DNA of 64,000 bases. Origin: Eledone cirrhosa. Its lineage: Eukaryota. Made by a program: the position numbers and the translations under genes. The first letter of the stretch is position 1; each line of letters begins with the position of its first letter. Shown one piece after another: positions 23,601 to 41,268 of this stretch. The stretch spans positions 51,770,001 to 51,834,000 of the forward strand of contig OZ024740.1 in assembly GCA_964016885.1 (NCBI GenBank), written 5' to 3'. Below the pieces are notes generated by a model, which saw only the letters and a program-made list of their open reading frames with translations, ran no database searches and was not told where the DNA came from.

Positions 23601-23789
23601 AGTACGGCTGTTACTTAAATATAAGTATGTATACGTACATACATATATGTATACAGACGTAGAGTAGTATGTATATATATATACATACATGCACACATAT
23701 ATATATGTACATATGGATTCACCGAACATTTATTACAATGCTCGGTGTGTTTGTAAACAAACATCCCGTATTAAGCCGTATATATATAA

Positions 23790-25110
23790 AAATGATTGGA
23801 TATATATGAAAATACATAAGTATTAAAAATGGTTGGATATATAAGAAAATACATAAGTATTAAGCATGTTTAGAATATGTACGGGTAATGGAAATTCATA
23901 TCATTCAAAAGAACCTTTCAGAAATTTTACAAAAATTTCCGTGTGTTTCGAAGGAAATTTTTAGAATTTTTCAAAATATTTTCATAAAAGAATTTCTGGA
24001 GGGTGCGATAATATAAGTATTGGTTTTAAGGAATAAATTAAAATTATAATTAATAAGTGTACTTTATATATTTAGGAAGGTTAGAATCTATATAGTCTGA
24101 GGGAAGAGATTATAGGTGTTTGGATCGAGAAAAAGGTTATGTAAGGAAGAATGAACATATATTACATTTTATATATATATCTAAAAGTTTACAAGAACTA
24201 AACAAATTATTCCGCAAATTAACAGAGTTCTTAGATTTTAGTATAAAGAATATTTCCTCTACACAAAGACTACAAAATTTGGATACACCTGTGTAGCATG
24301 GTGCTTTGGAGACAATTTTCCAAAATAAAGAGTATTTTATATTCTTGGATTTTAAATTCCATAATAAGTTGGATAGAGAAGTTGAAGATTTCTTGTTAAT
24401 ATTCGTAAAGGAACATTTATGGTTATTGAAACGAGATTTGAAGTCTGTCGAAGTAGAGCCGACATAGTTGAAGGAATTATCTTTGGTTTTGACATTACAA
24501 TTGTATACTATATTTTTAACTAAACAGTTATTATTTAGAGGACAGTTAGATTTATTTCTACAATTACATTTATCGGGATTTATATTATTGGGAGCCGTAA
24601 CATTATATTGGATATTGCTAGAGGTATTAATGCTATTCTGGTTAAGTTTTAAGTTTCTATTATTAATTCTATTAATATGCTGGGCTAAATTCATAGTGGT
24701 AGAGTATGATAATTTAATAGTATGTCTATTAAAGATTGAGTAATACCTGTGCGTCTTAGGAAAACAGCTATCTAAAGCTTTAAAAAATAGTTTAGCTATT
24801 GGAGTTTTAATACTTAATGAGAAAGGGGGAGCGAACCATAATATATTTCTAGTTCTATTTCTTCTTTTGATTTTCGAGTTATTGCAAGGTTTCCTATTAT
24901 AATTATAATTATAGTTATGGTTAATTGGCACATCCTTATTGTCAATATATTTAATTTCATTATTATAGCCTATTCTACTTAAAGCATTGTTATAATATTG
25001 TGCCTTATCTTCAAATATATTTTTATTCGTTGAGATTCTAGAGATACGTTGCTGCACAGAATTTACAATAGTGTTTTTAACGGATCTCGGGTGATTGTAA
25101 TTAAAGATAG
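23790..25110 (-). mobile_element. 5'-truncated Penelope-like element (RT C-terminus, Cys linker, GIY-YIG)
   Basis: ORF 24137-25135 contains NHPRSVKNTIVNSVQQRISRIS, WFAPPFS, CNCRNKSNCPLNNNC and NIVYNC...YVGSTSTDFKSRFNNHK. Confidence 0.9.
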
Positions 25111-25507
25111 GAAGGAAGAAATAGAATGGATGCATGAGAATAGGTCACAAAGATTAAAATATGCTCGTCAGATCTCAACCGCCTGCAGTTTCAACGATTT
25201 GATGAGATTACTGCGAAGAATAGGAGGCTCGTAATGGAGAGATAAATATCTTCATTCATATAATGTTTGTGTTGGGACAGGTTAGATATTAATCTGTGGT
25301 AGAAGGCTAAGATAGCTATTAGAGGTACGAAGAATTTAACTCGAATATGGAGTTTTGAGACGTAAGTGTATTAGAATTCGTAGGAAAACGGAAAAACTCG
25401 GCGTAAAACGGAAAAACGCGGCGTAAGGAAGCTCTTAAAACAGCTAAATGCCGTTGAAGCGGCGTCGGGTAAAATATTACCTCGAAGGACAGAGATGTAT
25501 AATACAC

Positions 25508-25599: not shown

Positions 25600-26447
25600 C
25601 CTTTCAGTTGTAGCTTGCATGCTCCGCTGGATGTGCAATAGTAATATACGTGAACGGCAAAGCATAAACGAACTAAGGAAAAAATTAGAAATAAGAGGGA
25701 TCAGATGTTGTTTACTCGAGAGAAGGCTACGTTGGTACGGTCACGTGATGCGCATGAAAGACGACAGCTGTATAACAAAGTGCAGGGCAATAAAGATAGA
25801 CGGTAGCCACGGAGTAGGCAGACCCAGAAAAACATGGGACGAGCTGATAAATTCCGACCTCACACGCTTACACCTCTCCAAGACAATGTCACTGGACCGA
25901 GACCTTTGGCGGTACTCAGTAATAGAGAAGACCCGCCTTACCTAAATACAAAGTAAAAACCTACTACAGTCAGTAGGCACCTCTATCAAAACACACCCCC
26001 GTCCCACCACCTCCACCCCACCCACACCGCCCCTTTCAATGTAAAGTTATGTTGGTCCCACAACATCCAGGCCGAAACAAATGAGATCGTGTAGGTGTCA
26101 CGACAAAAAACACACAGTCCACGCTGTAAATGTGGCCGTGTAGGCAACACGGTAAAAACCTCCCAGCCCCACACTGTAAATGTGGTTGGTGTTAGGAAGG
26201 GCATCCAGCTGTAGAAAACCCGCCAGACAGTCCACGCTGTAATGTGGCCGTGTAGGCAACACGGTAAAAACCTCCCAGCCCCACACTGTAAATGTGGTTG
26301 GTGTTAGGAAGGGCATCCAACTGTAGAAAACCCGCCAGACAGTCCTATGCGAGCAAGACAACCACTCTTGCCTCAAGTGGGAAAACCCCCGTCCAAACCC
26401 ATGCAAGCGTGGAACACGGACGCTAAACCTGATGATGATGATGATGA
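25600..26447 (+). mobile_element. 5'-truncated RTE-clade LINE 3' end with internally duplicated 3' UTR and (GAT)n tail
   Basis: Encodes MLRWMC...RRLRWYGHVMR...GRPRKTW. A ~115-bp tandem duplication lies at about 26113-26345. Confidence 0.85.
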
Positions 26448-30480: not shown

Positions 30481-30554
<74 letters not shown>

Positions 30555-30677
30555 TCTATTTAAATTGTTGGGATACAACAAGCAAATATTTTTATAACTG
30601 ATATAAAGCACTCAACAAATTATTGGAGTAAAAATACGATATAATAAATGGAAACTATATTTATAAAACCATATTTA

Positions 30678-30738
30678 TTTCATTATACATATTTCAAGGA
30701 CACCAAGTTAAATTATGGCGTGCTTTCATCAGATAAAA
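30678..30738 (-). ncRNA. Hammerhead ribozyme motif
   Basis: ttttat-CTGATGA-aagcacgcca...tggtgtcctt-GAAA-tatgta-TA-atgaaa. Confidence 0.7.
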
Positions 30739-30792
30739 TATAATATAGAGCAGTTTTATAAATAAATATTGACATACCCTTAAAGAATGCGA

Positions 30793-32100: not shown

Positions 32101-32142
<42 letters not shown>

Positions 32143-32143
<1 letters not shown>

Positions 32144-32328
32144 AAAACTATGACCCCGACGGCAGAGCTCAAGCCGTTTCGACGGCTATTTCTGGACTGA
32201 AATAGCCGTCGAAACGGCTTGAGCTCTGCCGTCGGGGTCATACTTTTTCCTATTTCCCATCTACTACCCTAAGTATTGAGTACTCTGGTGCGTTATGGTC
32301 CATCTGGTTCCTTACCCCAAGTCCTTTG

Positions 32329-32330
<2 letters not shown>
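32143..32330. mobile_element. Short (TA)n-inserted repeat family with near-perfect palindromic end
   Basis: Palindrome at about 32143-32247. The family is also present at 35059, 38438, 38978 and 41104. Confidence 0.75.
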
Positions 32331-32399: not shown

Positions 32400-33590
32400 T
32401 TGGGAGGGTCATGTTGCCAATAAGAAACACACGCACCAGTTGCTTTCACTCCAATTTATTATAAATTAAATTTATAAATTTCCGGTTGGTTGGTTGGTTG
32501 GTTCCATAACCGGACGGTTGTTTATATATTGTCAAAGTTCTTTCGTCACACATTCTGTGACCTCTTCAGTGACTGGGGATTCTTTTCTTTGTTTTGTGCC
32601 TCTCCTTTGTTCTGTCCTACGCCATCTTGTTTTTGTGTGTGTTGTGTGCTTAGTTTGCGCATGTGTTACATCCGGGTGTCTGTATGTGTTTTTATTTGTT
32701 TATGTATTTGTTTATTTACATGTTACTGGTTGGTTGTTTGTTCTATATGTGTGTGTGTTTTCATTTTGTCCTTAATTGTAAATTGTGATGTTGCTATTCC
32801 ATTCATGTTTTCTATTTAATTTTGGTTGGAGTTCATTTATGTTTATTGCCTCTGTGATTTGTCTAAACATTGCGTCTTTTCTGTGTGTAGATTTTATTTT
32901 TATTTCTATGTTCTATTTTAGCATGTTGGTGGAGTATTGATGATTCTTTTTTATCTTGAAGCTCTCGCCAGTGTTCATTTAACCGTTCTCTTATACTACG
33001 AGCTGTCTCACCTATGTACACTATATTCTTATCTTTACATTGTCCTTCAGTACATCTTATGCTACATACTACATTTCTAGTTTTACAGTTAAAATGGGGG
33101 CTTAGTTTACAGATGATGCATTTCTTATCTATACAGGGAGGTCTTTGAAAAGGGTATGTATTACTAATAAGTGTTTTTATGGAGGTACCTGGTCTTTCTA
33201 CTATCTTAATATTAAGTTTAAGTTTATCTAGGGCCCTTCTAAATTTATAAGATAATTCACCTCTAAGGGTTGTATTCATGAACATTACACTCTGGTATTT
33301 ATTGCTATCATACCCTGAGTTTATTCTATTAACCTTATTCCTAGTTCTTTCTATTCTATTCCAAAATTTGCTCCTATACAAGGGGCAGGTCCCATTTGTA
33401 TCATTATTTACCATTTTTTCCCATTTGGTTCTGGCTCCTCTATACACTCTGATTCTATCTCTCTGATTGTAACCAGAGAACTGCATACGGTGGATGAAGT
33501 GTTGTATGTGTGTCTCTAGTTCTTTGGGGTTGCACATGCGGGTCGCAACTGGTGCGTGTGTTTCTTATTGGCAACATGACCCTCCCAAAG
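32400..33590 (-). mobile_element. 5'-truncated Penelope-like element with inverted terminal segment
   Basis: ORF 32863-33537 contains GIY-YIG (VVCSIRC...YIGETARSIRERLNEH). Bases 32397-32444 are inverted at 33545-33590. Confidence 0.88.
32531..32573 (-). ncRNA. Minimal hammerhead ribozyme motif in Penelope-like 3' UTR
   Basis: gtca-CTGAAGA-g-gtcaca-gaatg-tgtgac-GAAA-gaac-TT-tgac; same strand as the ORF. Confidence 0.7.
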
Positions 33591-38354: not shown

Positions 38355-38708
<354 letters not shown>

Positions 38709-38977: not shown

Positions 38978-39102
38978 AACGAAGGAAATGTGGTAAGGAA
39001 CCAGGTGGACCATAACGCACCAAAGTACTCAATACTTAGGGTAGTAGAGTGGGTAATAGGAACAAGTAAGACCCCGACGGCTGAGCTCAAGCCGTTTCGA
39101 CG
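38978..39102 (+). mobile_element. Short (TA)n-inserted repeat family copy
   Basis: aacgaaggaaatgtggtaagg...gagctcaagccgtttcgac. Confidence 0.75.
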
Positions 39103-39164
39103 TATATATATATATATATATATATATATTAACAAATGGAAACTATAATTATAAAACATATTTA

Positions 39165-39225
39165 TTTCATTATACATATTTCAAGGACACCAAAGCAAAT
39201 TATGGTGTGCTTTCATCAGATAAAA
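39165..39225 (-). ncRNA. Hammerhead ribozyme motif (paralogue of 30678-30738) within an inverted element at 39126-39365
   Basis: ttttat-CTGATGA-aagcacacca...tggtgtcctt-GAAA-tatgta-TA-atgaaa. Confidence 0.7.
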
Positions 39226-39361
39226 TATAATATAGATCAGTTTTATAAACAAGTTTCCATTTGTTAATATATTGTAATTTTACTCCAAAAATTTGTTGTG
39301 TGCTTTATATCAGTTATAAAAATATTTGCTTGTTGTATCCCAACAAATTAAATATAACTTC

Positions 39362-39421
<60 letters not shown>

Positions 39422-39695
39422 ATATATAGAAACACACAGATACGTGCGGACACATACATATACATGAATATATCCACATATATCCTTGAATTTGTGGTGC
39501 CAACCTCTACCGATGTTGCTCTATGAATAACTGGGACAAAATAATCCGAATGGATTAGATTGATTCAGTATCAGAACTATATAATACATTATAAAGAAAA
39601 AAGAAACATTAGATACGTAGTCGAGGAGTAATGAAGGAATTTGGGTATGGTATATCTTATTAATTATATCTAATGTTTCTTCTCTCTTTATAATG

Positions 39696-39729
<34 letters not shown>

Positions 39730-39735
<6 letters not shown>

Positions 39736-40396
39736 GTACATACATATATGTATACAGACGTACAGTAGTATGTATATATATATACATACATGCACACATA
39801 TATATATATATGTACGTATGAATTCACCGAACATTTATTATAATGCTCGGTGTGTTTGTAAACAAACATCCCGTATTAAGCCGTAGTGTCTAGCAACCAT
39901 CGTTGCTCGTTTGTTCAACACTGACAAAGGAACGCTGTACTAGTTTCAAGCTTATTATCGTTTCATTTTTTCCGTTTATCGTTTTCGGTGCACCCGGCCG
40001 ATTAACCCACTCGATATGCAAATTGGGCTACTCAGCCGTTAATATGCATACGGTAAGTATACACGTTCAACAATCTGGCAGGAAGGTATACGTTGCTGAC
40101 GATAGCTAATAAGCTTGAAACTAGTACAGCGTTCCTTTGTCAGTGTTGAACAAACGAGCAACGATGGTTGCTGGACACTACGGCTTAATACGGGATGTTT
40201 GTTTACAAACACACCGAGCATTAAAATAAATGTTCGGTGAATCCATACGTACATATATATATATGTGTGCATGTATGTATATATATATACATACTACTGT
40301 ACGTCTGTATACATATATGTATGTACGTGTACATACTTATATTTAAGTAACAGCCGTACTAAGAGTGGTAAATGAAATTTCGTTTCATTTTTTTCC

Positions 40397-40401
<5 letters not shown>
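39730..40401 (+). mobile_element. Dispersed copy of the satellite unit: inverted partial unit plus one full unit with ~20-nt terminal redundancy
   Basis: Bases 39730-39957 are in the array's plus orientation and 39959-40401 are reversed. cgtttcattt(t)tttccgttta occurs at both ends of the reversed part. The copy is flanked by (TA)n. Confidence 0.9.
40066..40150 (+). ncRNA. Type I hammerhead with extended stem I; predicted cleavage after A40126 (GUA)
   Basis: ttcaac/gttgaa, ctggca/tgtcag, aagg/cctt and acgttg/cagcgt enclose CTGACGA (40096-40102) and GAAA (40117-40120). Confidence 0.88.
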
Positions 40402-40431
<30 letters not shown>

Positions 40432-40626
40432 TAAATCTACCAAGAGTTTACGGTAGTGTCCAATCCGTATGAAGAACTCAATGTAATCCGGATATCATGG
40501 AAAGAAGAGATGCAATGAAAAATCACTTTCGGTGAAAGATAAACGGAATACAGAGTCAAAATAAAATATTAAAAAAATAATGAATAAAACAATGAAACAG
40601 TTCCTTATATTAAACAAAAAAAGTTC

Positions 40627-40773
40627 ATTATTTAACGATCGTTTCTAGGATATATATGTGTTAGAATTGGCATGCATATTCAACAGATCTATGTACAAAA
40701 TTATACAAAATTATACAAACTATCAAAATTAAATATACATACCCAACACATATATATGCCGTCTTCAGAAATA

Positions 40774-41103: not shown

Positions 41104-41105
<2 letters not shown>

Positions 41106-41268
41106 CGAAGGAAATGTGGTAAGGAACCAAGTGGACCATAACGCACCAAAGTACTCAATACTTAGAGTAGTAGAGTGGGTACTAGGAACAAGTAAGACCC
41201 CGACGGCTGAGCTCTGTACAGAATTAGCCGTCGAAACGGCTTGAGCTCAGCCGTCGGGGTCTTACTTA
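41104..41268 (+). mobile_element. Short (TA)n-inserted repeat family copy with fold-back end
   Basis: agtaagaccccgacggctgagctc is inverted at the element end. Confidence 0.75.

Follow-up and report, generated by a model that had tools for sequence, protein, structure and literature searches.

The copy at 39727-40402 of the window (the whole 64,000-nt stretch of Eledone cirrhosa DNA analysed here) is, on our reading, a two-armed retrozyme insertion, likely placed at (TA)n by the enzyme of a Penelope-like element (PLE) and probably by copying round a circular RNA; taken as a whole, this reading stands somewhat better than even. That the RNA was mobilised by a PLE we consider very probable and, given such mobilisation, the template was on the whole probably circular rather than linear. 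Judged from its sequence, the family is a new member of the animal non-LTR retrozymes. No earlier description of the family or of its insertion footprint was found in the literature within our reach, which included few of the subscription papers.

Two arms of one unit meet head to head in (TA)n

The monomer is 422 nt long, with phase 1 set at 39958. The sense arm (39958-40402, forward strand) carries the tail and runs from phase 1 to phase 22 of the next unit, or 1.05 units: its opening 22-mer, TCGTTTCATTTTTTCCGTTTAT, at 39958-39979 recurs with one additional T at 40380-40402. Within this arm, on the forward strand, lie an internal TA/TG-rich, self-complementary block (40244-40336, phase ~287-379), site B (40342-40345, phase ~385-388), which is the tailless 3' end in other members and is read through here, and the tail itself (40346-40402), the ~56 nt between sites B and A, for which a hairpin is predicted that stops immediately short of site A (phase 22). 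The tailless arm (39727-39957, reverse strand) is inverted and spans phase 150 to ~377, or 0.55 unit. Its 5' break follows the 5' strand of hammerhead stem II, where the loop lies, and its 3' end is ~11 nt short of the usual tailless site. The arms stand head to head, and both outer ends are 3' ends in the ribozyme sense, each meeting the (TA)n target: the left flank (39700-39729), into which the 3' end of the inverted arm merges, and the right flank (40403-40429). The earlier note, which had described a full sense unit with repeated ends, an inverted partial unit broken in stem II and a setting in (TA)n, was correct on all three.

The inverted and sense arms are 98.2% identical over 228 aligned bases, differing by one TA indel and by four substitutions, one of which borders the TA flank. 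No frame of 120 aa was found across the copy, which thus lacks the RT and GIY-YIG ORF of an autonomous PLE. A second insertion, L310 (C1:181503166-181506195), has a near-identical shape, with arms of phase 142-377 and 1-22 and a 4-nt TCGT overlap at the join; the junction in the window resembles that join minus 4 nt. Re-mobilisation of a composite shared by the two loci is not supported, since they have no derived variant and no flank in common.

A search for the empty site did not recover the pre-insertion allele, because both flanks belong to other repeat families, and three contig sets and one RAD-seq run yielded no piece across the junction, in a stretch too repetitive for this to be informative. 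The flanking sequences (39470-39698 and 40431-40740) are further high-copy repeat families, the left one recurring as two-armed pieces, and around the copy elements abut one another at (TA)n tracts that they share. Another sequence, a short element that begins AACGAAGGAAATGTGG and contains an inverted repeat, occurs at 38441-38576, 38978-39102, 41105-41268 and 32138-32330; it sits between (TA)n tracts in several arrangements, and a simple scan of it found no hammerhead core. A 112-nt repeat unit beside (TA)n is present in tandem (2.1 copies) and singly, at 26114-26345 and 83-305 of the window.

A predicted type I hammerhead with a covarying stem I

The sense arm contains a predicted type I hammerhead (40090-40132, forward strand) with cleavage predicted after 40126. 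The call is made because the core is intact and stem I covaries. Stem I (40090-40095/40127-40132) has six pairs, ACGTTG/CAGCGT; the core CTGACGA (40096-40102) is followed by stem II (40103-40116), with four pairs above a U.U at its base, by GAAA (40117-40120) and by the stem III palindrome ACTAGT (40120-40125), and the whole core, CTGACGA...GAAA...GTA, is intact at 40096-40126. Among 187 dispersed ribozymes, 179-185 retain any given one of the six stem I pairs, and the third of these pairs appears as U-G (128), A-U (34), G-U (12), U-A (4) or C-G (3); these are counts of related copies, not of independent events. The covariation indicates, at the level of sequence, that the ribozyme fold has been maintained.

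The copy had been credited with the best-paired stem I. An equally stable extended stem I is indeed present in only 6/50 units of the local array, but the variant itself is merely the commonest (21/50 array units and 106/184 dispersed ribozymes), and a fully Watson-Crick form exists in 26/184 dispersed ribozymes. Rfam at gathering score gave no match, and the 61-nt ribozyme region folds no better than shuffled sequence (z -0.78). Positions 10.1-11.1 hold U.U in 186/187 dispersed ribozymes, so the canonical G10.1-C11.1 pair is lacking; natural U10.1-U11.1 variants exist, and among mismatches at this place U.U is the best tolerated, according to the relevant section of PMC3088659. The stem III of the unit matches the short palindromic helix III of dimer-type hammerheads, which pairs by using a second ribozyme, as described in part of PMC4209133, and in this it is like the amphibian ribozymes that act as dimers (10.64898/2026.07.22.740005). 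Cleavage in vitro was obtained with only 1/9 predicted Xenopus retrozyme dimers (10.64898/2026.07.22.740005). A pattern search for related ribozymes in other families gave only variants of the 422-nt family among the 100 of 145 matches listed, and no A-to-G editing signature was seen in the family (of 73 rare variants that recur, 4 are A>G and 3 are T>C).

The family is dispersed and the local array is a different subfamily

The unit is 422-427 nt long and non-coding, with an array GC of ~0.36, and occurs both in tandem and dispersed, within the size and GC range of non-LTR retrozymes (150-450 nt, <50%). The assembly contains 9,768 exact ribozyme cores, 3,426 exact ends at site A followed by (TA)n, 1,471 at site B followed by (TA)n and 4,474 read-throughs of site A; as exact-pattern counts these are lower bounds, and reversed-pattern controls gave 0. 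The nearest relatives of the copy are 97-99% identical and lie on 10 contigs (437 candidates, 40 scored), which points to recent mobility. Sequencing runs under nine other organism labels contain 20-37% of the unit's words, which hints at the family in related species.

The window also holds a related array on the reverse strand (2405-23780) of 50 units of ~427 nt, of a different subfamily, with the hammerhead core present in 50 units. Its units are on average 93.8% identical to the copy (best 95.5%), and 12 substitutions, one insertion and an 8-column gap set the copy apart from all 49 units compared. On these sequence differences, the array is not the source of the copy. The view taken earlier, that the unit is a mobile RNA-derived element rather than an offshoot of the array, is supported. 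At the right end of the array, 20 units are organised as a higher-order repeat of 4 units (lag 4 gives 3.6 differences, lag 1 gives ~18); the other 29 units show no such repeat. This right end (sense 5', phase 221) interrupts the 3' UTR of a PLE (23781-25144) at an internal TA run, and the left end, at phase 264, is neither site A nor site B and adjoins another inverted repeat.

Insertions use two fixed 3' ends, one of each

An end-blind sample was drawn by taking the first 100 exact cores on contig C1, which resolved into 87 pieces. The 3' ends of 76/87 pieces fall inside two windows that together span 37 of the 422 phases: 39/87 end at site A (phase 5-25) and 37/87 at site B (378-393), sites that lie ~56 nt apart. 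A (TA)n 3' flank follows 59/87 pieces, and 42/87 belong to head-to-head pairs. A replicate of 30 loci anchored on a ribozyme variant gave 26/29 pieces ending at the two fixed sites. The 5' ends are scattered across unit phases. A check proposed in the earlier note had looked for circularly permuted ends with (TA)n flanks; the flanks are there, but the 3' ends are fixed rather than permuted.

We collected 117 head-to-head pairs, 87 of them classifiable as A or B at both ends and 30 with an end elsewhere. One A and one B are used in 84/87 classifiable pairs, with one A/A and two B/B; by set, the counts of A+B, A+A and B+B are 46/1/1 (two local duplicates dropped), 9/0/1 and 29/0/0. Many paired loci had been selected via one end, leaving the opposite end free, and independent choice of ends would predict at most half one-of-each pairs. 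It is very rare for both ends of an insertion to share a start site, and this points to an enzyme pair that is asymmetric.

The 5' stops follow no comparable rule. The cleavage site is not a preferred stop (4/227, expected 5.9; 3/96 on new loci). The ribozyme core and stem II seemed to be preferred (18/227, expected 11.8) but gave 4/96 on new loci, and the tail hairpin loop (17/227) had a nominal p of 0.003 that became 0.37 after correction for the choice of window, with 2/52 tailed arms on new loci. We therefore drop the earlier reading of the stem II break and the ~20-nt terminal repeat as meaningful end points: 5' ends scatter and their apparent clusters failed to replicate. The count of pieces spanning the cleavage site (159/197) is inflated because loci were anchored on the core, and is not relied on. 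Arm junctions overlap by at least 1 base in 41/72 pairs, a BLAST-based count without a formal null. In L1-type twin priming the inverted and direct parts copy neighbouring segments of the template that do not overlap. Such priming on one linear RNA is rejected here, as the arms share at least 50 phases in 64/72 pairs and their 5' breaks are unrelated.

Penelope-like elements in the same genome

Insertions of PLEs have an inverted 5' copy and a tail at one end, according to the sections of Craig et al. (2021, PMC8557442) on insertion structure, and for an anole PLE in vitro both strands are nicked and extended, the tail corresponding to the stretch that separates two internal RT starts (Frangieh et al. 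2024, PMC11167929). PLE families of the Eledone genome were compared with the retrozyme. A young Hydra-type family has many open frames of 758 aa (L277 1292-3568, L278-L296) with an RT (YRDD) and a C-terminal nuclease whose Pfam GIY-YIG match is weak (E 0.026, below cut-off); their RWR, DKT, CxCx5C, CxxC and CxH motifs fit by eye the description of the Hydra clade in part of PMC8557442. The 3' region of this family is a TA/TG microsatellite of 1.5-2 kb, its copies have two 3' ends ~68 nt apart on (TA)n, and simple two-armed loci are tailed/tailless in 5/5 cases (by eye). Its ribozyme has a U.U beneath stem II, as in the retrozyme. We regard this family as a candidate enzyme source.

A second family (32863-33564) has two ends ~60 nt apart in 18/20 loci (by eye). 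A third has its ORF at 24137-25144 and, in fuller copies, a ribozyme ~1.3 kb beyond the ORF; two-armed, tailed/tailless terminal-repeat pieces of it, with hammerhead, lie at 39129-39364 and 30550-30790. The first of these is a neighbour of the copy, and the likeness earlier seen between the inverted 5' arm and PLE insertions is upheld by it. The ends of the PLE families sampled, which are a small part of the PLE sequence of the genome (59,671 first-look candidates), showed no sequence match to the retrozyme unit. Among 180 loci, no PLE ORF stood at a consistent junction with the unit.

The template and the competing explanations

Units within one insertion, and its two arms, share haplotypes. 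At five polymorphic sites, scored in pieces at least 93% identical to the reference, adjacent units are discordant in 14/301 comparisons and arm versus arm in 12/336, against 7202/20047 between insertions; the early suggestion of copying from a circular or multimeric RNA draws support from this sharing. The arms of the nine-unit insertion L172 comprise 3.7 and 5.1 units, neighbouring units differing at 1/795 and 0/1203 sites, and three rare variants are present in all units of both arms. A two-variant haplotype of L172 occurs 8 times in the assembly, every time at L172 and in both arms. A private haplotype that fills both arms favours a circular template; L172 is the one locus tested genome-wide, and its source may be missing from the assembly. 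In L121 and L171 two haplotypes alternate with period 2 (45/1047 vs 2/745; 96/2752 vs 17/2450). Most simply, one RNA circle, monomer or dimer, was copied repeatedly from both ends. The large arrays L017-L030 have 4-unit higher-order repeats, and periods of 1, 2 and 4 also fit doubling at the DNA level or tandem expansion after insertion; the older multi-unit copies L152, L175 and L179 are not cleanly periodic.

The most serious alternative keeps the PLE and changes the template: an uncleaved linear multimer, transcribed from tandem copies, would have been reverse transcribed and the arms later expanded as DNA, with the ribozyme weak or a passive passenger. We judge this unlikely, at roughly one chance in three in our estimation. 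Coding PLEs leave the same footprint from linear tandem transcripts, and for the anole PLE ribozyme cleavage is dispensable and unprocessed RNA is the main substrate (PMC11167929); the footprint therefore does not require a circle. The arms are moreover non-identical in the copy of the window, which differs between arms at polymorphic site 216 and at 267, and in L167, where one variant is in 6/7 units of one arm and 0/2 of the other, and the large arrays could have served as sources. Those arrays, however, are heterogeneous (neighbouring units differ at 55-126 of every ~2000 sites), in contrast to the young two-armed copies, which show almost no variation; the L172 haplotype, found at no other locus, would need a missing source or separate expansion of both arms; and the covariation of stem I speaks for a maintained rather than a passive ribozyme.

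Explanations that dispense with reverse transcription by a PLE fare worse. Recombination or extrachromosomal DNA circles might have spread a DNA satellite into fragile (TA)n, the inversion being a repair product, and the unit does have its own TA-rich block and does form long arrays with higher-order repeats. It would leave unexplained why the ends are strand-polar, with 3' ends fixed at two non-repetitive sites and 5' ends scattered, and why pairs use one of each end, as coding PLEs do; nor does the copy agree with any of the 49 local units compared. End polarity thus largely refutes this explanation, which we hold to be very improbable. A fold-back chimera in the assembly is scarcely credible: no piece of the contig sets or the RAD-seq run crosses the junction of this highly repetitive stretch, but the two arms differ in sequence and in the phase at which they start, as the halves of a fold-back read would not, and 117 similar pairs, following a consistent A/B rule, are found at unrelated loci.

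Discussion

For the preferred reading, PLE-driven copying of a probably circular RNA, the following course can be proposed. Tandem copies would be transcribed and self-cleave, probably in dimers of the ribozyme held together by the palindromic stem III, and the cleaved RNA would be ligated to monomer or dimer circles, by analogy with coral, mussel and axolotl retrozymes. A PLE protein may then bind the tail hairpin region and nick both (TA)n strands, as the anole PLE does in vitro. Each DNA end would prime reverse transcription at its own internal site, phase 22 or ~388; what is observed is that the ends are fixed at two sites and paired one of each, and we infer that these sites mark RT starts. 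Copying would continue past the cleavage site for a variable 0.1-10 laps, consistent with the variable 5' ends observed, and the two cDNA ends would be joined head to head, as the observed junctions suggest. In the copy of the window one arm would have halted after 0.55 laps and the other, the sense arm, after 1.05, the latter leaving the 22-nt repeat.

The family resembles the metazoan non-LTR retrozymes described in part of PMC7229834 in having a non-coding unit of 150-450 nt, tandem and dispersed, with low GC, one type I hammerhead per unit and PLEs present in the genome. The Discussion of that paper (Cervera and de la Pena 2020) calls PLEs strong candidates for mobilisation, and a preprint (Li, Clavereau and Pollet 2026; 10.64898/2026.07.22.740005) links the two by co-occurrence and pLTR similarity, with the mechanism still to be worked out. 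In published retrozymes the link thus consists of co-occurrence, shared ribozymes and pLTR similarity, the sections concerned describing no insertion ends (PMC7229834; 10.64898/2026.07.22.740005). The Eledone family, known here from DNA alone, differs in that the PLE footprint of tail and inversion is at its ends and no pLTR homology was found.

With PLE insertions it shares 5' truncation, partial tandems, an inverted 5' copy, a tail at one end, (TA)n targets and two fixed 3' ends (PMC11167929 and the insertion sections of PMC8557442). It departs from PLEs in having no ORF, in a tail of ~56 nt against the 30-40 bp described there, and in a repeating unit that is the entire small element (PMC8557442, same sections). 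The near-strict one-of-each pairing, counted in the Eledone family, is an addition to the description of PLE insertion. A further parallel is offered by non-autonomous Chlamys PLEs such as MRC1, likewise non-coding passengers of PLEs with multicopy head-to-tail insertions; by the account in part of PMC8557442, these have 3' sequence in common with autonomous families and belong to a clade mostly without hammerheads. The Eledone unit carries a ribozyme, and no link in sequence to a partner was detected.

How animal retrozymes re-enter the genome has been addressed by proposals that a circle is copied by a LINE or PLE enzyme, which the parts of the earlier reports concerned do not show from insertion ends. 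What this family adds is a retrozyme on which the footprint of PLE insertion has been counted, together with one clean, source-less two-armed multimer (L172). It yields exact, countable predictions, namely that on (TA)n reverse transcription starts at phase 22 from one DNA end and at phase ~388 from the other; the intact-looking Hydra-type PLE frames in the same genome are candidate enzymes. PLE insertion itself is quantified as well, in that its two ends almost never share a start site. Beyond this we suggest, with slightly less than even confidence, that rolling-circle reverse transcription may operate in an animal: a dimeric PLE enzyme would take hold of one small circle, monomer or dimer, and copy it for lap after lap from two fixed asymmetric starts into both ends of a cut in (TA)n, with variants of one RNA molecule filling both arms; retrotransposition would then give rise to satellite arrays of up to 50 units; and recognition of the RNA would depend on the shape of its tail and need no kinship in sequence with the RNA of the enzyme's own element.
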